From: Actinomycetes bacterium
Lineage (GTDB): Bacteria; Actinomycetota; Acidimicrobiia; Acidimicrobiales; Ilumatobacteraceae
Length of the DNA: 52,371 nt
Assembly: GCA_031423915.1 (NCBI GenBank)
Contig: JANPGL010000268.1
Span: 1-52,371 of the forward strand
Direction: 5' to 3'
The position numbers were made by a program, and so were the translations under genes. The notes under the pieces are model-generated. The model did not search any database. It saw nothing but the letters and a program-made list of their open reading frames with translations, and was not told the DNA's origin. Positions 3,465-37,128 of this stretch are shown here, one piece after another; the first letter of the stretch is position 1; each line of letters opens with the position of its first letter.

Positions 3465-6020
3465 CTACTCGGCGGGCGGGGTGGTCGGGCCGCTGCCCGC
3501 CAGCTCCGGTGTGGGCGGGGGCAGGAAGCCCTCGACCGACCGGAAGCAGATGTGCTGCTGACCCGGCTTGTCCGGATCCGGTTCGACGTCGACCACGATG
3601 ATCTCGCCGGCTCGGAAGTGCTTCGTGAGGATGCGCTCGGAGAGCTGGTCCTCGACCATTCGCTGGATCGCCCGGCGCAAGGGACGGGCACCGAGCAGCG
3701 GGTCGTAGCCCTTGTCGGCCAGGAAGGCCTTGGCCGCACTGGTGAGCTCGAGCCCGAGACCCTGGCTCGAGAGCTGGCCCTCGAGACGGCGGGTCATCAG
3801 GTCGACCATCTGCTCGACCTCGGCCTTCGACAACTCGTGGAACACGATGATGTCGTCGATGCGGTTGAGGAACTCGGGCCGGAAGTGGGCCTTGAGCGCG
3901 TCGTTGACCTTCTCCTTCATGCGCTCGTAGCTGACGGCCTCGTCGACCTTGGTGAAGCCGACGTTGGCCTTGCGCAGCTCCTGGGTGCCCAGGTTCGAGG
4001 TCATGATCAGGACGGTGTTGCGGAAGTCGACCGTGCGGCCCTGCGAGTCGGTGAGGCGCCCTTCCTCCAGGATCTGGAGGAGCGTGTTGAACACGTCGGG
4101 GTGGGCCTTTTCGATCTCGTCGAACAGCACCACCGAGAACGGCTTGCGCCGCACGGCCTCGGTGAGCTGGCCGCCTTCCTCGTAGCCCACGTACCCGGGG
4201 GGCGAACCCACCAGGCGGCTGACCGTGTGCTTCTCCATGTACTCCGACATGTCGAGCGCGATCAGCGAGCTCTCGTCGCCGAAGAGGAACTGGGCGAGCG
4301 TCTTGGCCAGCTCGGTCTTGCCCACGCCGGTGGGGCCCAGGAAGATGAACGAGCCCGACGGGCGCTTGGGATCCTTCAGGCCGGCGCGGGTGCGGCGGAT
4401 CGCCTGCGAGACCGCCTTGATGGCGTCCTCCTGGCCGATGACCCGCTTGTGCAGCTCGTCCTCCATGCGGAGGAGCTTCTGGGTCTCCTCCTCGGTGAGC
4501 TTGTACACCGGGATGCCGGTCCAGATCGAGAGCACCTCGGCGATGGCCTCTTCGTCGACCTCGTCGAACAGGTCGACGCCCGACGCCTTGATCTCGGCCT
4601 CGCGGCGGGCCTTCTCCTCCCGGATCGACTTCTCCTGGTCGCGGAGGCGGCCGGCCTCTTCGAAGCGCTGCTCCTCGACGGCCTGCTTCTTGCGGTTCTG
4701 CACCTCGGCGAGGCGGTTCTCCATCTCGCGCAGGTCGGGCGGGGCCTGCATGCGCTTGATGCGCAGGCGGCTGCCGGCCTCATCGATGAGGTCGATGGCC
4801 TTGTCGGGGAGGTGGCGGTCGGAGATGTACCGGTCGGCCAGGTTCGCCGCGGCCACCAGGGCCTGATCGGTGATCGTGACCCGGTGGTGGCTCTCGTACC
4901 GGTCGCGCAGGCCCTTGAGGATCTCGATGGTGTGGGCCACGGTGGGCTCCTCCACCTTGACCGGCTGGAAGCGGCGCTCGAGCGCCGCGTCCGTCTCGAG
5001 GTGCTTGCGGGACTCGTCGATCGTGGTGGCGCCCACGGTCTGGTGCTCGCCGCGGGCGGGCCTCGGCTTCAGGCTCGAGGCGGCGTCGATGGCGCCCTCG
5101 GCCGCACCGGCACCGACGAGGGTGTGGATCTCGTCGATGAACAGGATGATGTCGCCGCGGGTCTTGATCTCCTTGAGCACCTTCTTCAGGCGCTCCTCGA
5201 AATCGCCGCGGTAGCGGCTGCCGGCGACGAGTGCGCCCAGGTCGAGCGTGTACAGCTGCTTGTTGCGCAGCGTGTCCGGCACGTCGTTGGCCACGATCTT
5301 CTGGGCCAGGCCCTCGACGATGGCCGTCTTGCCGACGCCGGGCTCGCCGATGAGCACCGGGTTGTTCTTCGTGCGGCGGCTGAGGACCTGCATGACCCGC
5401 TCGAGCTCGCGGACGCGGCCGATGACCGGGTCGAGCTTCTTCTCGCGGGCGAGTTGGGTGAGGTTGCGACCGAACTGGTCGAGCACCGCCGAGCCCTGGT
5501 TGGCGGGCTCGTTGGCGCCGGCGGCCTGCGCGGCGCCCGACGTCGGCTGGGCGCCGGCCGTGGGCTCCTTGCCCTGCTGCTGGCCGTAGCCCGACAGGAG
5601 CTGGATGACCTGCTGGCGCACCCGGCTGAGGTCGGCACCCAACTTCACCAGCACCTGGGCGGCTACGCCCTCGCCCTCACGGATGAGGCCGAGGAGGATG
5701 TGCTCGGTGCCGATGTAGTTGTGGCCGAGCTGCAGGGCCTCGCGCAGCGAGAGCTCGAGCACCTTCTTGGCGCGGGGGGTGAAGGGGATGTGCCCCGAGG
5801 GTGACGAGCCGCCCTGCCCGATGATCTCTTCGACCTGGCGACGCACCGCCTCGAGGCTGATGCCGAGCGACTCGAGGGCCTTGGCGGCCACTCCTTCGCC
5901 TTCATGGATGAGACCGAGGAGAATGTGCTCGGTGCCGATGTAGTTGTGGTTGAGCAGGCGCGCTTCTTCTTGCGCCAGGACAACGACACGGCGAGCACGA
6001 TCGGTGAAGCGTTCGAACAC
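3465..6020 (-). CDS. clpC: ATP-dependent Clp protease ATP-binding subunit ClpC1
   Basis: [37 protein letters not shown]-domain repeats. Two AAA+ modules (GEPGVGKTA and GPTGVGKTE Walker A). UVR-like linker. The ORF opens at GTG 6032. I prefer GTG 6020 (giving MFERFTDRA) because AAGGTGG lies 8 nt upstream. Confidence 0.97.
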
Positions 6021-6273: not shown

Positions 6274-7257
6274 TTGACGTCCGTGGCGACCTCTCCGCTG
6301 CTCGCCCTACCCACGATGGCGGCCGATCTCGAGCGGATCGAGGTGGCGCTCCGCCATGCCGTGCGGACGTCCGACGACTACTTGACCGAGATGGCCAGCC
6401 ATCTGATCGTCGCCGGAGGTAAGCGCCTGCGCCCGGTCATGGCGGTGAGCTCGGCGCTCACGGGCGGCGGCGAGGCCAGCGACGACGTGGTGCGGGGCGG
6501 CGTGTCGGTCGAGCTGGTCCACATCGGATCGCTCTACCACGACGACGTGATGGACGAGGCCGAGATGCGCCGCTCGGTGCCGAGCGTCAACGCCCGCTGG
6601 GGCAACCACCGGGCCATCTTGTCGGGTGACTTCCTGCTGGCCCGGGCGTCGGAGATCGCCGCCAGCCTGGGCGCCGAGGTGGCCGGCCTCCTCGGCGCCA
6701 CCATCGCCCGCCTGGTCGAAGGCCAGATCTCGGAGCTGCGCACCCAGTACGACCCCAGCCGTCCCGAGCTCGAGTACCTGTTCTCGATCGAAGGGAAGAC
6801 GGCGTCGCTGTTCTCGGCGGCGGCGCGCATCGGCGGCATCGTCGCCGGTCTACCGCGCCACCAGATCGATGCCCTCACCGAGTTCGGTCTGGCCTACGGC
6901 ATGGTGTTCCAGGTGGTCGACGACATCCTCGACCTGACCGCCACCGAGGCCCAGCTGGGCAAGCCGGCCGGCCACGACATGGTGGAGGGGGTGTACACGC
7001 TGCCCGTGCTCCACACGCTGGCCGCCGGTGGCGCCGCGGCCGGCGAGCTGCGCGACCTGCTCGGGTCGCCGCTGGCCGGCGTGGCCCTCGACAAGGCGCT
7101 GGCGCTCGTGCGCGCCGGCGACGGCATCGCCTCGGCGCGGGCGACGGCCCGCACCTACGCGGAGCGAGGCGCGGCGGCCGCCGCATCGCTGCCCGAGTCG
7201 GCCGCCAGCACGGCGCTGGCCCAGGCGGGGTACGCCCTCATCGAGTCGCTGGGCTGA
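6274..7257 (+). CDS. Polyprenyl diphosphate synthase (trans-IPPS family)
   Basis: First DDxxD motif is LYHDDVMDE; the second is FQVVDDILDL; GGKRLRP is also present. Start is uncertain (TTG 6274, GTG 6283 or ATG 6316). Confidence 0.9.
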   Translation: MTSVATSPLLALPTMAADLERIEVALRHAVRTSDDYLTEMASHLIVAGGKRLRPVMAVSSALTGGGEASDDVVRGGVSVELVHIGSLYHDDVMDEAEMRRSVPSVNARWGNHRAILSGDFLLARASEIAASLGAEVAGLLGATIARLVEGQISELRTQYDPSRPELEYLFSIEGKTASLFSAAARIGGIVAGLPRHQIDALTEFGLAYGMVFQVVDDILDLTATEAQLGKPAGHDMVEGVYTLPVLHTLAAGGAAAGELRDLLGSPLAGVALDKALALVRAGDGIASARATARTYAERGAAAAASLPESAASTALAQAGYALIESLG

Positions 7258-7262
7258 CCGTC

Positions 7263-8051
7263 GTGCCCGTCGCGTCGGTGCCCGGGGCGACGCTGAACTA
7301 CGAGCTGATGGGCGCCGGGCCGCGCGTGCTGGTCGTCAACGGCACGGGATCCGACCTGCGCAAGAAGCCGAACGTGCTCGACGGGCCGATCGTGACGCGG
7401 TGCGAGGTCCTGACGTACGAGCACCGCGGCCTCGGCCGTAGCCGCGCCACGGACCTCGACGCCCAACCGACGATGACCGACTTCGGCGTCGACGCGCTGG
7501 CGTTGGCCGACGCGCTCGGCTGGGACCGCTTCGCGCTGCTGGGCATCTCATTCGGCGGGATGGTGGCGCAGCACACGGCGCTGGCCGGCGGCGACCGCAT
7601 CACCCGGCTCGTGCTGGCCTGCACCTCGGCCGGCGGGGCCGGTGGCGCGTCGGCGCCCCTCCACGAGCTCTACCCGCTCACCGATCCGACGCGCATCGCC
7701 CGGATGGTGGCCTACAGCGACGTGCGCACCGAGAACGACGAGCGCCGCCGGGCCGGCCTGATCGAGTTCATGACCGGCGCCACGGCGGCCGACGATCCGG
7801 CCACCTATCCGGGCCTGGCCAAGCAGCTGGAGGCCCGCCGCCACCACGACACGTGGGACCGGCTGCCCGGCCTGCAGGTCCCCACCCTGGTGGCCGCCGG
7901 GCGGCACGACGGCATCGCCCCGCTGGCCAACGCCGTGGCGCTGGCCGCGCGCATCCCCGGCGCCGGGCTGCAGGTGTTCGAAGGCGGCCACGTGTTCTTC
8001 CTCGAGGACCGCACCGCCTGGCCCGCCATGATCGACTTCCTGGTGGCCTGA
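7263..8051 (+). CDS. Alpha/beta fold hydrolase
   Basis: 262-aa ORF with a nucleophile elbow GISFGG, a C-terminal GGH, and typical length and architecture. Confidence 0.8.
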   Translation: MPVASVPGATLNYELMGAGPRVLVVNGTGSDLRKKPNVLDGPIVTRCEVLTYEHRGLGRSRATDLDAQPTMTDFGVDALALADALGWDRFALLGISFGGMVAQHTALAGGDRITRLVLACTSAGGAGGASAPLHELYPLTDPTRIARMVAYSDVRTENDERRRAGLIEFMTGATAADDPATYPGLAKQLEARRHHDTWDRLPGLQVPTLVAAGRHDGIAPLANAVALAARIPGAGLQVFEGGHVFFLEDRTAWPAMIDFLVA

Positions 8052-8060
8052 CGGCCCGCG

Positions 8061-9032
8061 CTACTCGAGCGCCGCGGTGATGGCCGCGGCGGCGGCCCAG
8101 CCCGAGCGCAACGCGCCCTCGACGCGGGGGCCGGCGAACGCGTCGCCGGCGAGCACGAACGGGGCACCGGACGGGGCGATCCAGCACGGGTCGTCCCACG
8201 TGCGGACCGGGGTGGCGAAGCGCCAGCGCTTCAGCTGGCGCTCCACGATGCGGGCCGAGCCCAGCCACGGCGCGGCCGCAGCGACCAGTGCGTCGAGCGT
8301 CTCGTCGTGGGGCCGCTCCCACCACTCGAGCGACCAGGCCGCGTTGGCATGCATCGTCACGGCCGGCACGGGGCTCACACCCTTGGCCATGTTGTCGACG
8401 ATCATCGAGAAGACGGGGTCGCCGTGCTGCACCGCGCCGGGCGCCGGGATGGCCGGAGGTCCGTCGAGCACCGCCAGCAGTGCCAGGGTGCGCTCGTAGT
8501 CGATGCGGATCAGGTCGCGGGGCAGCTCGGCGCCGGTGGTGATGGCGATCGAGAACGACTGAGGTACGGGCGCGGTGGCGATGACCGCATCGGCCTCGAC
8601 TACGGACGCGTCGTCGAGCACCACGGCCCACCCCCGCTCCTCGCCCGGGCGCAGCGCGAACACCAGCGACGAGCAGCGCACGTCGAGCCCGGTCGCCAGC
8701 GACTTGGCCAGCGCGTTCATGCCGCCCCGCACGGCGTAGCGCGGGTAGCCGTCGGCCTCGGGGCCGAAGCCGCGCGACCACTCGAACACCAGGCCCTCGG
8801 CGAGCCAACGCTCGACCCGGGCCGCCAGCTCGGGGGTGCGCACCGTGAAGAACTGGGCGCCGTGATCGAACACGGCGTCGCCGATGCGGCGCGTCGCCAT
8901 GCGACCGCCAGGCGACCGGCCCTTGTCGAACAGCACCACCTCGTGCCCCACGTCGCGCAGCGCGCCGGCCGCGGCCAGGCCCGCCAGGCCGGCCCCCACG
9001 ACGGCCACCCGCGTCCCCGCGGCCGGGCTCAC
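8061..9032 (-). CDS. NAD(P)/FAD-dependent oxidoreductase (amine-oxidase/renalase-like)
   Basis: GTG 9032 gives VSPAAGTRVAVVGAGLAGLAAAGAL (GxGxxG), followed by FDKGRSPGGRM. GTGA overlap with the upstream gene stop. The remainder of the 564-aa ORF is read-through of the upstream gene region. Confidence 0.85.
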   Translation of the reverse strand: MSPAAGTRVAVVGAGLAGLAAAGALRDVGHEVVLFDKGRSPGGRMATRRIGDAVFDHGAQFFTVRTPELAARVERWLAEGLVFEWSRGFGPEADGYPRYAVRGGMNALAKSLATGLDVRCSSLVFALRPGEERGWAVVLDDASVVEADAVIATAPVPQSFSIAITTGAELPRDLIRIDYERTLALLAVLDGPPAIPAPGAVQHGDPVFSMIVDNMAKGVSPVPAVTMHANAAWSLEWWERPHDETLDALVAAAAPWLGSARIVERQLKRWRFATPVRTWDDPCWIAPSGAPFVLAGDAFAGPRVEGALRSGWAAAAAITAALE

Positions 9033-21550: not shown

Positions 21551-22201
21551 ATGGCCTCCCAGGAGGTGGCGGTCACCGATCGCCTGCGCCACCTCGAGCT
21601 GTACACGATGCGCGGCTTGCTGACCGTGCTCTGGCACGGCACCGGCGACGAGGACGCCGCCGTGGTCGCCATGGGTGGGGCCATGGGCGGCCTGCTCGGG
21701 CCCGCCGAAGGCCTCTACCACCAGCTGGGCGAGGCGCTGTCGCGCGACCACGGGATCGCCACCCTGCGCATCAGCTACCGCAAGCCGAACGACCTCGACG
21801 CCTGCGTGCTCGACGCAGCGGCAGCCGTGCAGCTGGCCGTCGGGAACGGCGCCGAGAAGGTCGTGACGTTGGGTCACTCGTTCGGCGGCGCGGTGGCCGT
21901 GCGCACCGGGGTGCTGCTCGCCGAGATGGTGGCCGGCGTGTGCACGTTCGCCACCCAGTCGGCGGGGTGCGAGATCGCCGGCGGGTTGTCGGGCCGTCCC
22001 TTCCTGCTGTTCCACGGCGACCGCGACGAGATCCTGCCGGTCGACGCCAGCTTCATCGTGCGCGAGATCGCGGACTGGGGCGAGGTGGTGGTGCTGCCGG
22101 GCGACGGCCACCTGCTGGCGCGCTCGGGCGCCGTGATGGGCGAGCGGCTGCTGACGTGGATCCCCGAGACGTTGCGGGGCGCGAGCGGGTCGGCGACATG
22201 A
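21551..22201 (+). CDS. Alpha/beta hydrolase (dienelactone-hydrolase-like)
   Basis: MASQEVAV..., nucleophile elbow GHSFGG, and LFHGDRDEILP near the C-terminus. GGAGG lies about 11 nt upstream of ATG 21551. Confidence 0.75.
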   Translation: MASQEVAVTDRLRHLELYTMRGLLTVLWHGTGDEDAAVVAMGGAMGGLLGPAEGLYHQLGEALSRDHGIATLRISYRKPNDLDACVLDAAAAVQLAVGNGAEKVVTLGHSFGGAVAVRTGVLLAEMVAGVCTFATQSAGCEIAGGLSGRPFLLFHGDRDEILPVDASFIVREIADWGEVVVLPGDGHLLARSGAVMGERLLTWIPETLRGASGSAT

Positions 22202-29050: not shown

Positions 29051-29503
29051 ATGCGGTTCCGCACCACCATCGCCGCCGGCGGCAAGAACGCCACCGGCAT
29101 CCCGATCCCGCCCGACGTGCTCGACGCGCTCGCCGCCGGCAGGCGGCCGGCCGTTCGGCTCACGGTCGCGGGCTACACCTACCGCACGACGCTCGGCTCG
29201 ATGGGCGGCCAGGTGCTGGCACCGCTCAGCGCCGAGCACCGCACGGCGGCCGGCGTCGCGGCCGGCGACGAGGTCGACGTCGACATCGAGGTCGACGCCG
29301 CGCCGCGCACGGTGGAGGCGCCCGCCGACCTGGCGGCCGCGCTCGCCGGCGACCACGCCGCCCTGACCACCTTCGATGCGCTCGCCCCGAGCCACCGCAA
29401 GGAGTACGTGCGCTGGATCGAGGAGGCCAAGAAGGCCGAGACGCGCGCCGGCCGGGTGGCGAAAGCCGTCGAGGCGCTGCGGGCCGGCAAGAACCGCTAC
29501 TGA
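29051..29503 (+). CDS. DUF1905 + YdeI/OmpD-associated domain protein
   Basis: MRFRTTIAAGGKNATGIPIPPDV... followed by SHRKEYVRWIEEAKKAETRAGRVAKAVEAL. Confidence 0.7.
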   Translation: MRFRTTIAAGGKNATGIPIPPDVLDALAAGRRPAVRLTVAGYTYRTTLGSMGGQVLAPLSAEHRTAAGVAAGDEVDVDIEVDAAPRTVEAPADLAAALAGDHAALTTFDALAPSHRKEYVRWIEEAKKAETRAGRVAKAVEALRAGKNRY

Positions 29504-30060
29504 CCAGCCGTCGAGCGGCGACGAGCCGGGGCCGCTCGTGCTCCGACGACCGCCTCGGCATCGTCCGTCCCCTCGTCCGTCGAAGTATCCCGAGCTGGGA
29601 CGGCGACGGCCTTCGACGGCAGCCGGAACAGCGTCAGCGCGAGGAGGAGCACCGCCACTGCTCCCGAGCTCGCCAGGGCGTCCACCGGATCGTCGATGGC
29701 CACGAGCCGCTCGACACTCTTGATCGCCACGAACACCACGAGGGAGTCCACGAGCCGGCTCTTCAGGTCGTCGAACGAGCGGGCAACGAGCCACTGGGGC
29801 ACGTCGAGATCGCCGACGAACAACTCGTACAACCCGATGGCGATGATCACCTGGACGACGGCGAGCAGGTAGCCCTCGATGACCACGAGCAACTGAACGA
29901 TCGACCCGTCGTCCTCCCACCCGCCGCCGAGGAGATCGGCCACGAGCTTCACCGTCTTCGCCACCGCCCAGCCGGAGGTGACCACCGACGTGAAGGCCAG
30001 GCCGATCACGCCGACGACGGCGAGAAGCGGTGCTCGGTCGAGAATGCGCTTGACGGCCAC
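29497..30060 (-). CDS. YqhA (UPF0114)-like membrane protein
   Basis: GTG 30060 gives VAVKRILDRAPLLAVVGVIGLAF... with about 4 TM segments and an acidic tail. It lies 7 nt downstream of the zinc-ribbon gene stop. Family call is from memory. Confidence 0.5.
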   Translation of the reverse strand: MAVKRILDRAPLLAVVGVIGLAFTSVVTSGWAVAKTVKLVADLLGGGWEDDGSIVQLLVVIEGYLLAVVQVIIAIGLYELFVGDLDVPQWLVARSFDDLKSRLVDSLVVFVAIKSVERLVAIDDPVDALASSGAVAVLLLALTLFRLPSKAVAVPARDTSTDEGTDDAEAVVGARAAPARRRSTAGQ

Positions 30061-30067
30061 GGCGCGC

Positions 30068-30382
30068 TCAGAAGTCGAACAGCTCGCCGAGGAGCGACTT
30101 GCGCTTCTTCGGTTTGCCGTACCGGTCGCCGCCGTAGCGGCGATCGTCGTCATCGTCGTCATCGTCGTCATCGCGGAACGCCGGCGCCGGCGCCGGGTAC
30201 GACGACGGCCCGGGCCGGGCCGGCGCGGCGACGGAGCGGTCGGCGACGGCCATGCGGTCGATGATCTTGTCGAGCTCACCGCGGTCGAGCCACACGCCAC
30301 GGCACGTGGGGCAGTAGTCGATCTCGACTCCCGTGCGGTCCGCCATGACGAGCGTGGCATCGGGGCAGGCGGGGCACTTCAT
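30068..30382 (-). CDS. TFIIB-type zinc-ribbon protein with a poly-Asp tract
   Basis: MKCPACPDATLVMADRTGVEIDYCPTCRGVWLDRGELDKII has CxxC...CxxC. It is followed by DDDDDDDDD, encoded by (ATCGTCGTC)x3 at 30143-30169, and a KPKKRKSLLGELFDF tail. ATGA overlap with the ATPase stop. Confidence 0.75.
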   Translation of the reverse strand: MKCPACPDATLVMADRTGVEIDYCPTCRGVWLDRGELDKIIDRMAVADRSVAAPARPGPSSYPAPAPAFRDDDDDDDDDDRRYGGDRYGKPKKRKSLLGELFDF

Positions 30383-33159
30383 CGGGAAACCTCCGGGGTA
30401 CGGGCACGTAGGACGAGCTTGCGCAGCTCCTCGATCCACAGCACGCTCGACGCCACCAGGGCGCACACCGCCCACTGCGCCGGCGTGATCGAGGTCGTGG
30501 CGAACAGCCGCTGGAGCGGGCCCACGTGGGTGACGGCGACCTGCAGCACGAGCACCGAGCCGAGCGACACCCACAACCACCGGTTGCGGAGGCTGTCGCG
30601 GTGGAACACGCTCGTGCGGTCGCTGCGCACGTTCAGCAGGTTGAAGAACTGGAACAGGACGAACGTGGTGAACGCCATCGTCCCGGCCACCGTGGGGGTG
30701 CCACCCGGAAGTGCCTCGCCGGGGGCCCACGCCAACACGGCGAGCGTTCCGGCCGCCATGGTCACGGCGGCGACGCCGATGGCGGCCCGGCGCCGTCCGG
30801 TGACGATCTTCTCTTCGACCGGCCGAGGAGCGCGGCTCATCACGTCCGACGACGACGGGTCGAGACCGAGCGCCATCGCCGGAGGACCGTCCATCACGAG
30901 GTTGACCCACAGGATGGCGATGGCGGCGAAGGGCTTGCCATCGGCGAGCCCGAACAGCGCCGCCAGCAGGAACACGACGGCGAACCCGATCGTCGTCGAG
31001 AGCTGGAAGCGCACGAACTTCACGACGTTGTCGTAGATGGTGCGCCCGCGACGCACGGCGCCGACGATCGTGGCGAAGTTGTCGTCGGCGAGGACCATCG
31101 ACGCCGCCTGTTTCGTCACTTCGGTACCGGTGATGCCCATGGCCACGCCGATGTCGGCGCGCTTGAGTGCCGGGGCGTCGTTCACGCCGTCGCCGGTCAT
31201 GGCCACGACGTTGCCTCGATGCTGCAGGGCGGCGACGAGCCGCAGCTTGTGCTCCGGCGAGACGCGGGCGAACACGCCCACGTCATCCAGGCGACCGCCG
31301 AGTGCGTCGTCGTCGAGCGCGTCGAGCTCGGCCCCGGTCATCGCCGCGCCGGGCAGGCCGAGCGACCGGGCGATCGACGTCGCGGTCGTCACGTGGTCGC
31401 CGGTGATCATCTTCACCGAGAGTCCCGCGGCGTGCGCCTCGGCGATCGCCTGGCGCACCTCCGCCCGGGGAGGGTCGAGCAGGCCCACGAGACCGAGCAC
31501 CGTGAGGCCCCCGGTCAGCGCCGCCAGCTCCAGCTCCCCCCGCTCGAGGCGGGCGATCTCGTCGGCGTCGAGGTCACGCGAGGCCACCGCCAGCACCCGC
31601 AACCCACGCCCCGCCATCTCCTCCATCGCCGTGTCGATGCGCTGGCGCCCGGCCGCGACCGGGACGGTGCCTCCTCCCACCAGCACGCTGTCGGCCCGGG
31701 CGAGCAGCACGTCGGGTGCACCCTTCACATAGGCCCGTACGACGTCGACGCCACCGCCGGTGACGCGGTGAGCCGTGGCCATCAGCTTCGTGGCCGACTC
31801 GAACGGCGCCTCGGCAAGCCGCGGGTGACGGGCCCGGAGCGAGCCGAGGTCGACGCCACCCTTGGCGGCGAGCACGAGGAGCGCCGTCTCGGTGGGATCG
31901 CCGGTGTGGTGCCAGCGCTCGCCATCGTGGCGCAGTGCGGCGTCGTTGCAGAGGACGACGGCCGCGAGCACCTCCTCGACCGCGGGATCCGCATGACCGG
32001 CGGACTCGCCGCACACCGCCTCGATCACCCCGCGCGGCTCGTAGCCCGTGCCGCTCACCCGGTGGAGGCGGCCGCCGGCGACGAGCTCGACGGCGGTCAT
32101 CTCGTTCATCGTGAGCGTGCCGGTCTTGTCGGAGCAGATCACGGTGGTCGATCCGAGCGTCTCGACCGAGGCCAGGCGCTTCACGATGGCGTTGGACTCG
32201 GCCATCCTGGCGACACCGATGGCGAGCGTGACCACGGTGACGGCGGGGAGGCCCTCGGGGATGGCGGCCACGGCGAGGGCCACGCCGGTGAGCAGCATGT
32301 CGCTCAGACTCGAACCGCGGACCAGACCGATCACGACCACGGCGGCGACGATGACGGCGGCGAGCTTGGCCAGGCCGTGGGCGAGCTCGTCGAGCTGGCG
32401 TTGCAGCGGCGTGCGCTCCGTCGTGGTGGTGGCGAGCAGCCCGGCGATGCGGCCGATCTCGGTGCGCATGCCCGTGGCGGTCACGACGAGCTCACCGCGC
32501 CCCCGGGTGACGCTCGTGTGCATGTGGGCCATGCAGGCGCGATCGCCGATGCCGACCGTGGCGTCCGGCGAGGCGACGACCAGCCCGGTGGCCTTGGCCG
32601 TCGGCACGCTCTCGCCGGTGAGGACCGACTCGTCGACCTCGAGGCTGCTGGCGACGACCAGCCGGCCATCTGCAGGGATGCGGTCGCCCGCCTCGACGAG
32701 CACGACGTCGCCGGGCACCAGGTCGTCGGCCGCCACCACGTGCACGTCGCCGCCACGGCGGACGCGGGCCTGATGGACGGCCATCTGCTGGAGCGCCTCC
32801 AGGGACCGTTCCGCCCGCTGCTCCTGCACGAACCCGATGACCGCATTGAGCAGCACGACGGTGAGGACCACGATCGGCGTCTTGAGCTCGCCCGACACGA
32901 AGAAGGCGACCGTGGCGGCCGCGAGCAGCACCAGGATCAGCCGGTCGGTGAACTGGGCGGCGAGCCGCCGCCAGGCGGGAACGGGCGGCGTGCCGTCGAG
33001 CGCGTTGGCGCCGAACGAGGCGAGTCGGCCCGCCGCCTCTGCGTGGCCAAGGCCGGAGGCGGGGTCGACGTCGAGCGCGGCGGAGACGTCGTCGACGTCG
33101 AGCCGGTGCGGCGCGTCTACGGCCAGGGCGACGGCGCGGCGTGGGTGGTGAGCGAGCAT
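30379..33159 (-). CDS. P2-type cation-transporting P-type ATPase (Ca2+/Mn2+-ATPase-like)
   Basis: TGES (LTGESVP), PEGLP in TM4 (AIPEGLPAV), DKTGTLT, MITGDH, and GDGVNDAPALK. ATG 33159 has GAAGGA 8 nt upstream. The 29 extra codons of the ORF upstream overlap the regulatory leader. Confidence 0.93.
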   Translation of the reverse strand: MLAHHPRRAVALAVDAPHRLDVDDVSAALDVDPASGLGHAEAAGRLASFGANALDGTPPVPAWRRLAAQFTDRLILVLLAAATVAFFVSGELKTPIVVLTVVLLNAVIGFVQEQRAERSLEALQQMAVHQARVRRGGDVHVVAADDLVPGDVVLVEAGDRIPADGRLVVASSLEVDESVLTGESVPTAKATGLVVASPDATVGIGDRACMAHMHTSVTRGRGELVVTATGMRTEIGRIAGLLATTTTERTPLQRQLDELAHGLAKLAAVIVAAVVVIGLVRGSSLSDMLLTGVALAVAAIPEGLPAVTVVTLAIGVARMAESNAIVKRLASVETLGSTTVICSDKTGTLTMNEMTAVELVAGGRLHRVSGTGYEPRGVIEAVCGESAGHADPAVEEVLAAVVLCNDAALRHDGERWHHTGDPTETALLVLAAKGGVDLGSLRARHPRLAEAPFESATKLMATAHRVTGGGVDVVRAYVKGAPDVLLARADSVLVGGGTVPVAAGRQRIDTAMEEMAGRGLRVLAVASRDLDADEIARLERGELELAALTGGLTVLGLVGLLDPPRAEVRQAIAEAHAAGLSVKMITGDHVTTATSIARSLGLPGAAMTGAELDALDDDALGGRLDDVGVFARVSPEHKLRLVAALQHRGNVVAMTGDGVNDAPALKRADIGVAMGITGTEVTKQAASMVLADDNFATIVGAVRRGRTIYDNVVKFVRFQLSTTIGFAVVFLLAALFGLADGKPFAAIAILWVNLVMDGPPAMALGLDPSSSDVMSRAPRPVEEKIVTGRRRAAIGVAAVTMAAGTLAVLAWAPGEALPGGTPTVAGTMAFTTFVLFQFFNLLNVRSDRTSVFHRDSLRNRWLWVSLGSVLVLQVAVTHVGPLQRLFATTSITPAQWAVCALVASSVLWIEELRKLVLRARTPEVSR

Positions 33160-33165
33160 GGGGAC

Positions 33166-33280
33166 GTTCCTTCGATGACGGTGGGTCGATCGAAGGTCTC
33201 TCCCAGCCCCGGAGGGCCTCGCACACCGGACCCCGAGGGTCGTCATGACGGCGGTGCGACGCAGGGATACTCCCCTTCGC
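33166..33280 (-). promoter_or_regulatory. Riboswitch-like leader, copy A (yybP-ykoY/Mn2+-type signature) with SD-sequestering hairpin, upstream of the P-type ATPase
   Basis: Sense (minus) reads GCGAAGGGGAGUAUCCC, then 59 nt, then GGGAGAGACCUUCGAUcgacccaccgucAUCGAAGGAAC, then 6 nt, then AUG. CGAAGG/CCUUCG can close a P1 helix. CCUUCGAU can alternatively pair with AUCGAAGG, which contains the SD. Confidence 0.6.
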
Positions 33281-33365
33281 TGACCACCTTACGGAACGGC
33301 GGCTCCGATGACAACCTTTACTAGATTTGCCTTGCAGGTGATTGTCTGTCGTCGTACCGTGACGG

Positions 33366-33479
33366 GCGAAGGGGAGTATCCCGACACGGTGCTATCGCCA
33401 GCACGGACCTCACGGTCCCGGTAGCCCGGCTCCACGGAGCGGGAGAGACCTTCGATCGACCCACCGTCATCGAAGGAAC
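33366..33479 (+). promoter_or_regulatory. Riboswitch-like leader, copy B (same signature) upstream of the eRF1-like gene
   Basis: GCGAAGGGGAGUAUCCC (33366-33382), then 58 nt, then GGGAGAGACCUUCGAUcgacccaccgucAUCGAAGGAAC (33441-33479), then 5 nt, then GUG 33485. The boxes are 17/17 and 39/39 identical to copy A. Confidence 0.6.
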
Positions 33480-33484
33480 CCACC

Positions 33485-34504
33485 GTGAACCGTGCCCTGC
33501 TCGCCGACCTCCAGCAGCGTCGCTGCTACCCGAGCGTCACCATCCTGCTCAACACCACGCCCGCGCCCGCGATGGCGGCCGACGACCGTCTCACGGCACT
33601 GCGGTTGGTGGAGAAGGCCGATCGGCGTCTTGCCGACGACGTGGACGGTGCGATCCGCACCGCGCTCGTCCTGAAGCTGACCGAGCTCGTGGCGGAGCAG
33701 GCGTCTCGCCGGACGACGATCGCCCTCGCCGTGTGCGTGTCGCCGGAGCACTCGGCCGTCGTCCCGCTCGGTCGGCCCGTCGACGCTCGCGTCGTCATCG
33801 ACGACACGTTCGCCACGCGGGACCTGGTCGCCGACCTCAATCGCACGGCGCTCTACCGCGTGGTCACGATCAGCGACCGTCGGGTACGCCTGTTCGTGGG
33901 CGACCGTCAGCGGCTGGTGGAGGAGCGCACGCCGTCGTGGCCGCTCGAGCGGACGGAGGACCAGAACCACGGCGCGTGGATGCGCCACGTGATCGCCCGC
34001 CTCGCCGCCGAGGAGGTGACCCATCCCCTGCCGACCGTGTTCGCTGGGGTCGATCGCACGGTGCGCCACCTCCTCACCGCCGACAGCGCGGGCACCGTCG
34101 GTGTCATCGGAGGCAACCACGACCGCACGTCCCACGTGCAGCTCCACCACGCCGCATGGCCACTCGTGACCGACTGGCTCCGCGGCGACCGGGACCGGGC
34201 GCTCGCCCGGCTCGACGAGGCCCGCTCGGCCCGACGGTACGCCAGCGGCATCGACGAGATGTGGGCGCTGGCCAACGACGGCCGCGTCGAGCTCGTCGTC
34301 GCCGAGGAGGGCTACCGCGTGGCGGCGCGGCTGGGCGACCACCACCAGCTCGTTCCCGCGGACGACGCCGAGGCCCCCGACGTCGTCGACGACGTGGTCG
34401 ACGACACCATCGAGCACGTGCTGCGCTGCGGTGGCGAAGCGGTGCTCGTGCCCGACGGCGACCTGTCCGCCCACGGGCGGATCGCCGGCATCCTGCGGTA
34501 CTGA
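33485..34504 (+). CDS. Conserved hypothetical protein, eRF1-like (bacterial baeRF-type release-factor-like family)
   Basis: The N-terminus LLADLQQRRCYPSVTILLNTTP and the C-terminus DDVVDDTIEHVLRCGGEAVLVPDGDLSAHGRIAGILRY resemble the baeRF families as I recall them. No GGQ motif is seen. Needs HMM confirmation. Confidence 0.45.
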   Translation: MNRALLADLQQRRCYPSVTILLNTTPAPAMAADDRLTALRLVEKADRRLADDVDGAIRTALVLKLTELVAEQASRRTTIALAVCVSPEHSAVVPLGRPVDARVVIDDTFATRDLVADLNRTALYRVVTISDRRVRLFVGDRQRLVEERTPSWPLERTEDQNHGAWMRHVIARLAAEEVTHPLPTVFAGVDRTVRHLLTADSAGTVGVIGGNHDRTSHVQLHHAAWPLVTDWLRGDRDRALARLDEARSARRYASGIDEMWALANDGRVELVVAEEGYRVAARLGDHHQLVPADDAEAPDVVDDVVDDTIEHVLRCGGEAVLVPDGDLSAHGRIAGILRY

Positions 34505-34505
34505 C

Positions 34506-34904
34506 CTACCCAGCCCCGGCGTCGATCTCGGCGAAGACGGATTCGGCCACCTCGACCGACGACAGGCACACCGGGAACCCGGCGTACGGGATCATGTGCA
34601 CGAAGACCTCGAGCACCTCCCGGCGGGTGAAGCCCTGGTCGAGTGCCCCCTTGATGTGCACCTTGAGCAGCGTCGGCCGGCCCAGCGCAGCGATGGTGGT
34701 CATCGTGATGATGCGCCGGGTCTTGTAGTCGAGCGCGTCGCGCGCCCACACGTCGCCGAAGCAGAACTCGCCGAGCATGCGGTCGAGGTCGGGACCGACG
34801 ACCGGGTCGACGCGCTGCCAGCGCTGGAGGCCGGCACCGCTGCCGCCGGTCTCCTCCAGCACGCGCACGCCGGCTTCGTACCGGTCGGAATCGAACTCGA
34901 TCAT
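34506..34904 (-). CDS. Carboxymuconolactone decarboxylase (CMD/AhpD-like) family protein
   Basis: FCFGDVWARDALDYKTRRIITMTTIAALGR...EVFVHMIPYAGFP is typical of the CMD domain. ATGA overlap with the aminotransferase stop. Confidence 0.8.
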   Translation of the reverse strand: MIEFDSDRYEAGVRVLEETGGSGAGLQRWQRVDPVVGPDLDRMLGEFCFGDVWARDALDYKTRRIITMTTIAALGRPTLLKVHIKGALDQGFTRREVLEVFVHMIPYAGFPVCLSSVEVAESVFAEIDAGAG

Positions 34905-36301
34905 CGGGCTCCCCAGGGTCGGACGGCCGTGGCCGGACGCGTCAGGTGCGGCGGTGCGGGCGCACCGGCCGACGACGTGGCGGCATCGACGATCGACAGC
35001 CCCTCGTCGAGCACGCCGAGCGCCCAGTCGAGCTGATCGGTGGTGACGACCAGCGGTGGGTTGGCGAACAGGTAGCTGCCGCGCAGGTTGGCCAGCAGCC
35101 CCTTCGATGTCAGGAACGCTCGCAGCTCGCCCGCAGCGGGCCCGGTGGGGCCGACGATGGGGAACAGCTCGGCGCGCGTCTCGCGGTCGTGGACCAGCTC
35201 CATCACGGAGAACAGGCCGACGCCGCGCACGTCACCCACGCACGGGTGGCGCTCCTGCAGGGACCGCAGACCGGCGACCAGGTAGTCGCCCATCTTGGCC
35301 GAGTTCTCGATCAGCCCGTCGCTCTCGTAGATGCCCATCACGCACTTGGCGGCCGCCAGGCCGACCGCATGCGCCTGGTACGTGAGGCCGGAGCCGAACG
35401 GAACCTCGTCGATGGCCGCGGCCACGGCGTCGGACAGCACGCAGGCGCCCACCGGCAGGTAGCCGCTCGTGATGCCCTTGGCCACGGTCATGATGTCGGG
35501 GCTGACGCCCTCGTGGTCGACGGCGAACCACCGACCGGTGCGGCCGAAGCCGCTCATCACCTCGTCGCAGATCAACAGGATGCCGTGGTGGTCGCACAGC
35601 GCCCGCAGGCCGGCGAGCCAGCCGGCAGGCGGCACGATGAGCCCGTTCGAGCCGGTGACCGGCTCGACCATGATCGCCGCGATGGTGTGCGGCCCCTCCA
35701 GCTCGATGATCTGGTCCAGCTGGGCCAGATGGAAGTCACGGAACTCGGCGGCGTCCTCGATCCACGGGAACCGGTAGTGGTACGGATCGGGGATGCGCAC
35801 GATGTCGCCGACGCCACCTTCCACCGGATAGCGGCGCGGGTCGCCCGACGCGGCCAGCACCCCGGTGGTGGACCCGTGGTACGAGCGGTAGCGGGTCAGG
35901 ATCTTGCGCCGCCCCGTCACCAGCCGTGCCGTGCGGATGGCGGCCTCGTTGGCGTCGGCGCCGGCGAGCGTGAAGAACGCCTTGGTCATGCCCGCCGGGG
36001 TGAGGCGGGCGAGCATCTCGCCCACCTCCGCCCGGATCTCGGTGACCATGAACGGCGACACGAACGCCACCTTGGCCATCTGCTCGGCCACGGCGGCCGT
36101 CACGCGCTGGTCGCCGTGGCCGATGTTCACGCACATGGCGATGGAGTTGAAGTCCATGTACCGCGTGCCGTCACGCCCGTAGAGGTAGACGCCCTCGCCA
36201 CGTTCGATGCAGAGCGGGTCGACGTGCTGGTTGCCCCACTCGAACACCGTGTACGTCTTGGCCCGATCGACGATGGTCGCCGCGTCGGTGGTCACGCTCA
36301 T
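34901..36301 (-). CDS. Class-III (omega) aminotransferase, beta-alanine/taurine-pyruvate type
   Basis: MSVTTDAATIV...; AGADANEAAIR; LICDEVMSGFGRTGRWFA; PLP-lysine context DIMTVAKGITSGY. ATGA overlap on both sides. Confidence 0.9.
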   Translation of the reverse strand: MSVTTDAATIVDRAKTYTVFEWGNQHVDPLCIERGEGVYLYGRDGTRYMDFNSIAMCVNIGHGDQRVTAAVAEQMAKVAFVSPFMVTEIRAEVGEMLARLTPAGMTKAFFTLAGADANEAAIRTARLVTGRRKILTRYRSYHGSTTGVLAASGDPRRYPVEGGVGDIVRIPDPYHYRFPWIEDAAEFRDFHLAQLDQIIELEGPHTIAAIMVEPVTGSNGLIVPPAGWLAGLRALCDHHGILLICDEVMSGFGRTGRWFAVDHEGVSPDIMTVAKGITSGYLPVGACVLSDAVAAAIDEVPFGSGLTYQAHAVGLAAAKCVMGIYESDGLIENSAKMGDYLVAGLRSLQERHPCVGDVRGVGLFSVMELVHDRETRAELFPIVGPTGPAAGELRAFLTSKGLLANLRGSYLFANPPLVVTTDQLDWALGVLDEGLSIVDAATSSAGAPAPPHLTRPATAVRPWGAR

Positions 36302-37128
36302 GGCGCTCCCAACGCGGCGTACGTCTCGGGCCGCCGATCGCGCCACACCGGCAGCTGCAACCGGGCAGCCCGCAAGGCATCCAGGTCGAGGTCGGCCATC
36401 ACCACCTCCTCGGTGTTGCCGCCCTCGGACAGGATCTCGCCGTCGTAGTCGCAGAAGTAGCTGTGGCCGTAGAAGTCGTTCGGCCCCAGCGCCTCGAGGC
36501 CCACGCGGTTGTTGGTCCCCACGTAGTACCGGTTGGCGATGGCGTGCGCCCGCTGCTCCACGTGCCACGTCCGGTACGAGTGCCCGGACGTGGCCGACGG
36601 GATGAACACGATCTCGGCCCCGGCGAGCCCGAGGGCGCGTGCGCCCTCGGGGAAGCGCCGGTCGTAGCAGATGTACACGCCGATCCGGGCGAACCGCGTC
36701 TGGAACACAGGGAAGCCCAGGTTTCCCGGCTTGAAGTAGAACTTCTCGAAGAAGAACTCGCTCTGCGGGATGTGGGTCTTGCGGTACTTGCCCAGGTAGC
36801 TGCCGTCGGCGTCGATGACCGCGGCGGTGTTGTAGTAGGTGCCCATGTCGTCCTCGAACAGCGGGACCACGAGCACCACACCGAGCTCGGCTGCGAGGTC
36901 CGACATCGCCTTCACCGACGGTCCGTCGGGGATCGGCTCGGCGAGGTCGAACCACTCGGACGTCTCCACCTGGCAGAAGTACGGGCCGCTGGCCAGCTCC
37001 TGCAGACAGATGATCTGGGCACCACCGGCGGCCGCCTGACGCACGAGCGTGGCCTGGTGGTCGAGCATCGCCTCGCGGGGCGAGATGCCGTTGGTCTGGA
37101 TGAGCGCACAACGCACGTTGGCCGTCAT
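36298..37128 (-). CDS. Carbon-nitrogen hydrolase (beta-ureidopropionase / N-carbamoyl-amide amidohydrolase-like)
   Basis: Glu-Lys-Cys triad contexts are ICLQELA, YRKTHIP and VYICYDRRFPE. EKFYFKPGNLGFPVF is also present. Confidence 0.88.
   Translation of the reverse strand: MTANVRCALIQTNGISPREAMLDHQATLVRQAAAGGAQIICLQELASGPYFCQVETSEWFDLAEPIPDGPSVKAMSDLAAELGVVLVVPLFEDDMGTYYNTAAVIDADGSYLGKYRKTHIPQSEFFFEKFYFKPGNLGFPVFQTRFARIGVYICYDRRFPEGARALGLAGAEIVFIPSATSGHSYRTWHVEQRAHAIANRYYVGTNNRVGLEALGPNDFYGHSYFCDYDGEILSEGGNTEEVVMADLDLDALRAARLQLPVWRDRRPETYAALGAP

Follow-up and report, generated by a model that had tools for sequence, protein, structure and literature searches.

What is encoded in the gap that separates a minus-strand P2-type cation ATPase gene (ATG at 33159) from a plus-strand, eRF1-like baeRF_family3 gene (GTG at 33485) in an actinomycete of the family Ilumatobacteraceae? 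The gap spans 325 nucleotides (nt; positions 33160-33484) of a 52,371-nt stretch of contig JANPGL010000268.1, the whole of which we refer to as the window. A sequence-only reading had described it as a large imperfect palindrome holding two divergent leaders, here called A (minus strand) and B (plus strand), with the signature of the yybP-ykoY (Mn2+) riboswitch class. We consider it likely that the gap does contain two divergently transcribed riboswitches of this class, and that they act as translational ON switches; by analogy with the class, we infer Mn2+ to be the ligand of both leaders.

The palindrome was described accurately, down to each coordinate. The 39-nt arms of the inverted repeat (33166-33204 and 33441-33479) are 100% complementary, and the 17-mer GCGAAGGGGAGTATCCC, expected 0.1 times by chance, is present exactly at 33264-33280 on the minus strand and at 33366-33382 on the plus strand; this repeat widens to 30 nt at 80%. 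Thus, both leaders do share a 17-nt 5' box and a 39-nt 3' box in the window, as had been claimed, but sharing of this kind is not a general trait, since only this genome has the long identical 3' box. Between the boxes we measured variable cores of 59 and 58 nt, as reported. Within the 52-kb window both boxes are confined to the gap, and the sole extra match, to a 14-nt probe for the 3' box with two mismatches (21706-21719), is a chance one. The central 85 nt (33281-33365) are AT-richer, as noted earlier, with a G+C content of 54% compared with 72% for the window.

The assignment to a riboswitch class is carried by homology. To collect relatives, we took a single genome from each species and searched it with a pattern in which nothing but the L1 boxes was fixed; at least 120 loci matched. 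We aligned 127 distinct instances with MAFFT, and built a covariance model, R1, from these 127 relatives only. In the window, R1 matches the two leader copies and nothing else. In 35 kb of E. coli DNA searched with filters off, its two best matches are the leaders of alx (27.5 bits, E = 4e-6) and mntP (25.4 bits, E = 2e-5), and the third-ranked match has E > 5. The alignment of alx with R1 shows an L3 of equal length and near-equal sequence (CGUCAUUAC), and the L1 box, with GGGGAGUA in its 5' strand and GAGA in its 3' strand, is found in both window copies and in alx and mntP as aligned. Since R1 recognises alx and mntP, and since L1, L3, the P1 switch helix and Mn2+-type gene contexts are all present, we conclude that the leaders are homologous to the yybP-ykoY class, in agreement with the sequence-only reading.

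Both leaders have the closing P1 helix, CGAAGG/CCUUCG, that had been proposed for them. When each aptamer was folded alone and without constraints, a three-way junction was predicted for both (B, -39.9 kcal/mol; A, -41.7 kcal/mol). The common fold consists of a P1 of 6 base pairs (bp), an L1 of 6 nt (5') and 4 nt (3'), a P1.2 of 4 bp, a 4-nt junction, a P3.1 of 10 bp with a one-nucleotide bulge, a 7-nt L3 bulge, a P3.2 hairpin and a P4 hairpin, and it is the same in A and B although their cores are only 63% identical. Judged by these predicted folds, both aptamers are of the P2-less three-way-junction form known from alx.

Helices of this fold covary among the relatives. We scored P1, P1.2, P3.1 and P3.2, the length of P4 being too variable for MAFFT columns. 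RNAalifold applied to the raw MAFFT alignment paired the invariant boxes locally (GGGG/CCCC, GGAG/CUUC) and was uninformative; an explicit long-range structure was used instead. The proposed pairs form in 92.4% of cells, compared with 36-56% if the 3' partners are displaced by one to three columns, and the covariation score is 0.299, a value that no displaced arrangement (at most 0.10) and none of 500 shuffles reaches. Covariation is heavy in P3.1 and P3.2, as at pair 68-124, where G-C occurs in 34 sequences, C-G in 27, U-A in 20, U-G in 12 and A-U in 6. At pair 19-164 of P1.2, 100 sequences have U-A and 17 have C-G. P2 is a covarying, stable hairpin in 14 of the 127 relatives and is missing in 111; the relatives that bear it bridge to the four-way-junction form, and the family spans both architectures.

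The segment CGUCA-NYAC between P3.1 and P3.2 is near-invariant, and it was absent from the search pattern. Across the family, L3 has the consensus U/C-C-A-N-Y-A-C, with A at the third position in 126 of 127 sequences and U (115), C (7) or A (5) at the first. In this metal-binding loop the family is of the alx type. The pairs flanking L3, 72-120 (C-G) and 73-119 (G-C), are kept in 125 of 127 and, as far as sequence can indicate, would fit the A-minor receptor described for the class. In X. oryzae, A48 is the N7 donor and lies two residues past A46 (PMC6754395). If A46 is taken as the first nucleotide of L3, the third L3 position (A33400 in B, A33246 in A) would be equivalent to the Mn2+-binding A48.

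We then considered how metal binding might be coupled to expression. The minimum-energy fold of each full leader is a sequestered state, in which CCUUCGAU pairs with AUCGAAGG over the ribosome-binding site GAAGGA, itself spaced 7-8 nt from the start codon in both leaders. Platforms A and B are identical over 39 nt, an identity specific to this genome. The 5' strand of P1 (CGAAGG) mimics the ribosome-binding site. Pairing against the ribosome-binding site is found in 105 of 121 relatives, compared with 19% of shuffles, and the sequestering helix usually stops 5-12 nt short of the start codon. A scan for terminators detected none. Mn2+ stabilises the P1.1 helix in this class (PMC6754395), and by analogy we would expect the window leaders to be translational ON switches. 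In the mechanism that we propose, the 3' strand of P1 would, without metal, pair as in the sequestered state and bury GAAGGA; Mn2+ bridging a docked L1 and L3 would stabilise P1, the ribosome-binding site would be freed and translation could begin. Aptamer A would turn on an operon for an SPCA/PMR1-like Mn2+/Ca2+ P-type ATPase, a COG3809 Zn-ribbon protein and a UPF0114 protein, and aptamer B would turn on a Balon-family (eRF1-like) homolog of ribosome hibernation factors.

A strict scan for E. coli-type sigma-70 promoters, which is unsuited to actinobacterial TANNNT promoters, found none. Of 121 relatives, 74 have a TANNNT -10 hexamer that starts 14-17 nt ahead of AAGG; in the two window copies it starts at -14. 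Because of the position of this box, transcription is predicted to start just ahead of P1, and the aptamer probably begins at the extreme 5' end of each mRNA. The gap is arranged as the sequence-only reading had it, as a compact node with two outputs in which two aptamers surround one putative promoter core.

Several observations weigh against a Mn2+-class riboswitch. The L1 boxes and the inner pairs of P1 and P1.2 were set by the search pattern, and their invariance is not evidence. P1 is missing from the minimum-energy fold of 46 of the 127 aptamers. Copy B has C, not U or A, at the first position of L3, as do only 7 of 127 relatives. By nearest-neighbour energies, the P1-formed ON state lies above the OFF state by 9.6 (B) and 15.4 (A) kcal/mol, a difference that would have to be made up by tertiary and metal contacts or by folding during transcription. 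Lastly, RF00080, the Rfam model of the class, gives no match in 33050-33600 even at E <= 10, and at its gathering score it detects none of 18 taxonomically diverse relatives.

The sequence-only reading had named a match to RF00080 as its own check, and taken at its word this check goes against the class; indeed, no family of Rfam 15 reaches its gathering score anywhere in the window. We first read the negative in that way, but dropped this interpretation once the positive controls failed too. At the gathering score of 45, RF00080 reports neither of the two experimentally validated E. coli riboswitches, alx and mntP; the leader of mntP, an RNA that has been crystallised, scores 41.6 bits when given alone, and for alx the model detects nothing at E <= 10. 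A single relative, located ahead of a TerC gene (L039), has a sub-threshold match of 24.9 bits. Because validated alx is missed and mntP falls below the gathering score, the RF00080 negative carries almost no weight, and the model, blind to the P2-less alx type, is not a valid test here. The RF00080 'Manganese' model has 177 positions; it leaves GGGGAGUA unpaired, and P1 and the 3' strand of L1 are unmodelled.

The energies also bear on whether the leaders sense a ligand at all. A structured leader related to yybP-ykoY that has lost ligand sensing and works either constitutively or through a protein partner would be compatible with energy models that favour the OFF state by a wide margin. Nevertheless, L1, L3 and the L3-flanking pairs are near-invariant across several phyla, which points to selection on the metal-binding core, and the pairing that competes for the ribosome-binding site is conserved as well. 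We regard a leader of this kind as quite improbable, and favour a metal-responsive riboswitch.

The genes that the riboswitches precede bear on the signal to which they respond. The first downstream gene encodes TerC in 50 of the 127 instances and a P-type ATPase in 26. It encodes a TFIIB-type Zn-ribbon protein (COG3809) in 10, baeRF3 or PGPGW-baeRF3 in 10, a DksA/TraR-type protein in 5, HtpX in 3, an AMP-binding protein in 3, USP in 2 and a sigma factor in 2, and the remaining 16 have another gene or none. TerC and COG3809 are typical genes of Mn2+ riboswitches (PMC5737381), and mgtA of S. pneumoniae, a P2A ATPase closest to SPCA1, is a validated target of the class (PMC6649816, PMC11672702). 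Hence, the downstream genes match known targets of Mn2+ riboswitches (PMC5737381; PMC6649816).

In the window, the first gene of the minus-strand operon encodes an ATPase whose best NCBIfam match is TIGR01522 (PMR1-type; 726 bits, under the 798 cutoff) and whose best match among solved structures is human SPCA1 (E = 2e-176). On this similarity the protein is SPCA/PMR1-like, and a candidate Mn2+/Ca2+ exporter. The ATG of the Zn-ribbon gene overlaps the ATPase stop codon (ATGA). The Zn-ribbon gene is in another frame than a long open reading frame at 29497-30360; because of this, and of the position of its ATG at the ATPase stop, the start of the UPF0114 gene is probably near 30050, not 30360. 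Synteny of ATPase and UPF0114 genes recurs at loci L008-L010.

The same gene contexts, together with work on related systems, raise the possibility that fold and switch are as we describe but that the signal is not, or not only, Mn2+. Ca2+, another divalent ion or cytoplasmic alkalinity would then act on a stress regulon of wider scope, and not on Mn2+ detoxification. The S. pneumoniae mgtA riboswitch responds to Ca2+ too in vitro (PMC11672702, PMC6649816); in alx, Mn2+ sensing is coupled with alkaline pH, and the L3 of alx starts with U, as here in copy A (PMC12153347); the ATPase in the window is of the SPCA/PMR1 Ca2+/Mn2+ type; and the associated genes include general-stress functions, namely the Balon-like factor, USP, HtpX, DksA-type proteins and sigma factors. 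Yet alx itself still needs Mn2+ (PMC12153347), the candidate N7-donor adenosine is conserved along with the whole L1/L3 core, and the leading context is TerC, the family to which the E. coli Mn2+ exporter Alx belongs. We think a different or additional signal unlikely, and retain Mn2+ as the presumed ligand.

The plus-strand gene would take the class beyond metal transport. Its product scores 194.6 bits (E = 3e-57) against NF052287, 'AOC03_06830 family ribosome hibernation factor', under the 330-bit cutoff, and both of its termini (residues 3-147 and 236-339) match chain B of PDB structure 8RD8 (E = 3.5e-19); 8RDV and 8RDW are also matched. We take these three entries to be P. urativorans ribosome-Balon complexes, and the depositors' name for the chain, 'methyl-accepting chemotaxis protein', to be an old misannotation. 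By sequence similarity, the eRF1-like gene would encode a homolog of the Balon family that belongs to a related but distinct subfamily, baeRF_family3. Homologs of the protein are found chiefly in metagenome-assembled genomes of Acidimicrobiia, at loci where the same leader precedes baeRF3 or a PGPGW-baeRF3 operon.

In a survey of metagenomes, we selected baeRF3 loci only by the similarity of their proteins, using no RNA pattern. Of 35 close homologs whose upstream sequence was long enough, 31 have the riboswitch upstream, on the strand of the gene. In two of the four exceptions (L142 and L166), baeRF3 is downstream of a same-strand ATPase gene, as it is at L114, where the order is riboswitch, ATPase, Zn-ribbon and baeRF3. 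A small gene for a PGPGW (PF09656) membrane protein, with a stop codon that overlaps the baeRF3 start codon, stands between riboswitch and baeRF3 at L004, L006, L008, L096, L134, L136 and others, and is missing in the window, L001, L025 and L032.

Balon, Rv2629 and Msmeg1130 are ribosome hibernation factors, and Balon genes are typically in stress operons (PMC10901736). The baeRF3 protein of the window differs from Balon in belonging to baeRF family 3 and in scoring under the NCBIfam cutoff, and a role at the ribosome would be predicted for it by homology. The papers on Balon (PMC10901736) and on baeRF proteins (PMC6514570) make no mention of riboswitches, manganese or metal control. In the literature that we searched, which did not extend to published gene lists of Mn2+ riboswitches, no paper joins a riboswitch with Balon and ribosome hibernation. 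The tight coupling of a Balon-family paralog to a Mn2+-class riboswitch thus appears undescribed in that literature. We tentatively suggest that, in Actinomycetota and relatives, the alx-type Mn2+ riboswitch has a use beyond exporters, and that excess Mn2+, or alkaline or other stress, may trigger ribosome hibernation or protection through a dedicated baeRF3; the twin node might then co-induce metal export and translational shutdown from one promoter core. This is a possibility that we would not yet call probable. The coupling of baeRF3 to the riboswitch gives one Balon-type subfamily a testable inducing signal, and would link metal stress to ribosome hibernation. Often, the baeRF3 gene and a gene for an SPCA-like metal pump are divergent neighbours or share an operon.

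The head-to-head arrangement was one that the sequence-only reading had not seen described. We likewise found no description of it in the literature searched, but it is not unique to this genome: besides the window, divergent riboswitch pairs are present at at least 11 other loci (L013, L095 from Actinotalea ferrariae, L113, L136, L137, L138, L140, L141, L157, L158 and L177), although some of the metagenomic ones may be close kin of one another. The recurrent twin-riboswitch node appears undescribed in the sources searched. At L095 the pair sets an ATPase against baeRF3, as in the window, and the divergent partner in pairs, where identifiable, is an ATPase, a Zn-ribbon protein or UPF0114. All other pairs have a spacer of 61-63 nt, except L095 (138 nt). 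The 61-63-nt spacers contain two abutting divergent -35 boxes within a near-palindrome, AACATGGCAAC-NN-GTTGCATGTT (L113, 7596-7658; L136, L137, L141 and L177, about 1802-1864; L157 and L158, about 2311-2373). The near-palindrome runs past the -35 hexamers and could be an operator for a dimeric regulator. The spacer of the window is 12 nt longer and has no such palindrome.

How did the two copies in the window come to share their ends? The long identical 3' box is found only in the window pair; the 10 other pairs scored share just GAGACCUUCG, and L095 was unscorable. Among leaders of other genomes, those of the baeRF3 type come nearest to the core of copy B (83%, 79% and 76%). For the core of copy A, identity to foreign leaders is 70-73%; between A and B it is 63%. 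Because each core is closer to foreign leaders than to its neighbour, the copies are old paralogs, and we rejected a recent tandem-inverted duplication of the whole leader. In this lineage the ends, with the whole expression platform, would have been made alike, and gene conversion between the inverted repeats is the simplest way in which this could have happened.

This history also speaks to whether the palindrome is a DNA-level feature, such as the operator of a dimeric regulator or the ends of a small mobile element, with RNA structures that are incidental. The gap is, after all, a large inverted repeat, and a conserved near-palindrome centres the spacer of other paired loci. Still, that central palindrome is the very element missing from the window, where the arms fall on the aptamer and the ribosome-binding site, not on the promoter centre, and the resemblance of each core to leaders elsewhere exceeds its resemblance to the other core. 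Moreover, most relatives are single-copy and always oriented with the downstream gene, and the helices covary as RNA pairs, G-U included. On the strength of orientation, covariation and single-copy relatives we rejected both the operator and the mobile-element versions, to which we attach almost no probability, and we continue to read the gap as a pair of riboswitch leaders.

Comparison with known systems places the window leaders within the class. The alx aptamer is a P2-less three-way junction with an L3 consensus of UCAUUAC, compared with ACAUACU for the family (Stephen et al. 2025; PMC12153347). Like the window leaders, it has no P2, a three-way junction, the same L1 box and, as proposed for the window, translational control through a P1.1 switch helix, and its 7-nt L3 may be set beside UCAUGAC and CCAGCAC in the window and UCANYAC in the window family. 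It differs in that its P4 is long and contains an internal termination site, its expression platform is large and its target is a TerC-family exporter, whereas the window type has a compact platform hairpin of 8 bp, with the 3' strand of P1 doubling as the anti-ribosome-binding-site sequence. S. pneumoniae mgtA resembles the window in that a Mn2+-class ON switch controls an SPCA1-like P-type ATPase (PMC6649816). It acts on transcription (in vitro read-through, PMC11672702), while the window has no terminator and appears to be controlled at translation, and its leader is in addition paired head to head with a second copy. Members of the four-way-junction class (L. lactis yoaB, X. oryzae and E. 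coli mntP) have a sarcin-ricin-like L1 loop, L1-L3 docking, an adenosine N7 ligand in L3 and a P1.1 switch helix (PMC6754395), all of which the window leaders would share, but have P2 and an L3 of the ACAUACU type.

Aptamers like that of alx have been stated to occur only in Enterobacterales (PMC12153347). The leader loci listed in our analysis are mostly from Actinomycetota (Acidimicrobiia, Thermoleophilia, Cellulomonas, Bifidobacterium, Dietzia, Micromonospora and Streptomyces), and some are from Chloroflexi and Alcanivorax. The class is not new to Actinobacteria, since older Rfam releases annotated yybP-ykoY ahead of terC in C. glutamicum (PMC3890552). That alx-type aptamers are abundant in Actinomycetota, present in Chloroflexi and missed by RF00080 appears undescribed in the sources searched. 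The window RNA belongs to a known class, and what appears new is the gene link, the twin node and the spread of the alx type. Given the blindness of RF00080, surveys of Mn2+ riboswitches in Actinomycetota and Chloroflexi are likely to undercount. The compact leader, with its anti-ribosome-binding-site sequence within P1, also offers a simple model in this class for how metal binding is passed on to translation. Coordinates of the leaders and of their genes are collected in Table 1.

Table 1. Positions in the window of the predicted RNA elements, putative promoters and genes of the twin-leader locus
Feature	Position	Strand	Details
Aptamer B	33367-33454	+	Leader of Balon-like/baeRF3 gene; model R1, 84.6 bits, E = 2e-22
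Aptamer B, P1	33367-33372/33449-33454	+	
Aptamer B, L1	33373-33378 and 33445-33448	+	
Aptamer B, P1.2	33379-33382/33441-33444	+	
Aptamer B, junction	33383-33386	+	
Aptamer B, P3.1	33387-33397/33419-33428	+	
Aptamer B, L3 bulge	33398-33404	+	CCAGCAC; candidate metal-binding A at 33400
Aptamer B, P3.2 hairpin	33405-33418	+	
Aptamer B, P4 hairpin	33429-33440	+	
Expression platform B	33449-33487	+	Hairpin CCUUCGAU (33449-33456)/AUCGAAGG (33469-33476)
Ribosome-binding site B	33472-33477	+	GAAGGA, followed by start GTG at 33485
Aptamer A	33191-33279	-	Leader of P-type ATPase operon; model R1, 78.8 bits, E = 9e-21
Aptamer A, P1	33279-33274/33196-33191	-	
Aptamer A, L1	33273-33268 and 33200-33197	-	
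Aptamer A, P1.2	33267-33264/33204-33201	-	
Aptamer A, junction	33263-33260	-	
Aptamer A, P3.1	33259-33249/33228-33219	-	
Aptamer A, L3 bulge	33248-33242	-	UCAUGAC; candidate metal-binding A at 33246
Aptamer A, P3.2 hairpin	33241-33229	-	
Aptamer A, P4 hairpin	33218-33205	-	
Expression platform A	33157-33196	-	Hairpin CCUUCGAU (33196-33189)/AUCGAAGG (33176-33169)
Ribosome-binding site A	33173-33168	-	GAAGGA, followed by start ATG at 33159-33157
Shared divergent promoter core	33281-33365		Putative
Putative promoter B	33332-33337 (-35), 33355-33360 (-10)	+	TTGCAG and TACCGT; predicted start near 33366
Putative promoter A	33314-33309 (-35), 33291-33286 (-10)	-	TTGTCA and TAAGGT; predicted start near 33280
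baeRF family 3 gene	33485-34504	+	339 amino acids; Pfam PF18845; gene of aptamer B
P2A-type cation ATPase gene	30379-33159	-	926 amino acids; Pfam N-terminal, E1-E2 and C-terminal domains; first gene of aptamer A
COG3809/PF13453-like Zn-ribbon gene	30068-30382	-	104 amino acids, MKCPACP...CPTCRGVWLDRGELDKI; tblastn match to Zn_ribbon_TFIIB cluster
UPF0114 membrane protein gene	29497-30050 (start approximate)	-	PF03350, E = 4e-16; last gene of ATPase operon

Some loci hold several riboswitch copies. L109 has three (4245-4345 and 6597-6696 on the minus strand, 7610-7710 on the plus strand), two of them ahead of DksA/TraR-type zinc-finger genes. Two copies each are present at L020 (5185-5285 and 6557-6658, both minus) and L081 (3749-3855 and 5822-5927, both plus). 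Such multi-copy loci suggest a larger cluster of stress genes under riboswitch control. At L004, a gene for a FUR-family regulator and an operon for ZnuA/ABC-3 metal uptake (6403-9020) lie about 1.4 kb downstream of the PGPGW-baeRF3 operon that is under the riboswitch. Elsewhere in the window, a minus-strand open reading frame of 736 amino acids (34901-37111) encodes a class-III aminotransferase with its Pfam domain from residue 297 onward; either its N-terminal region is long and without a domain, or its start codon has been called too early.

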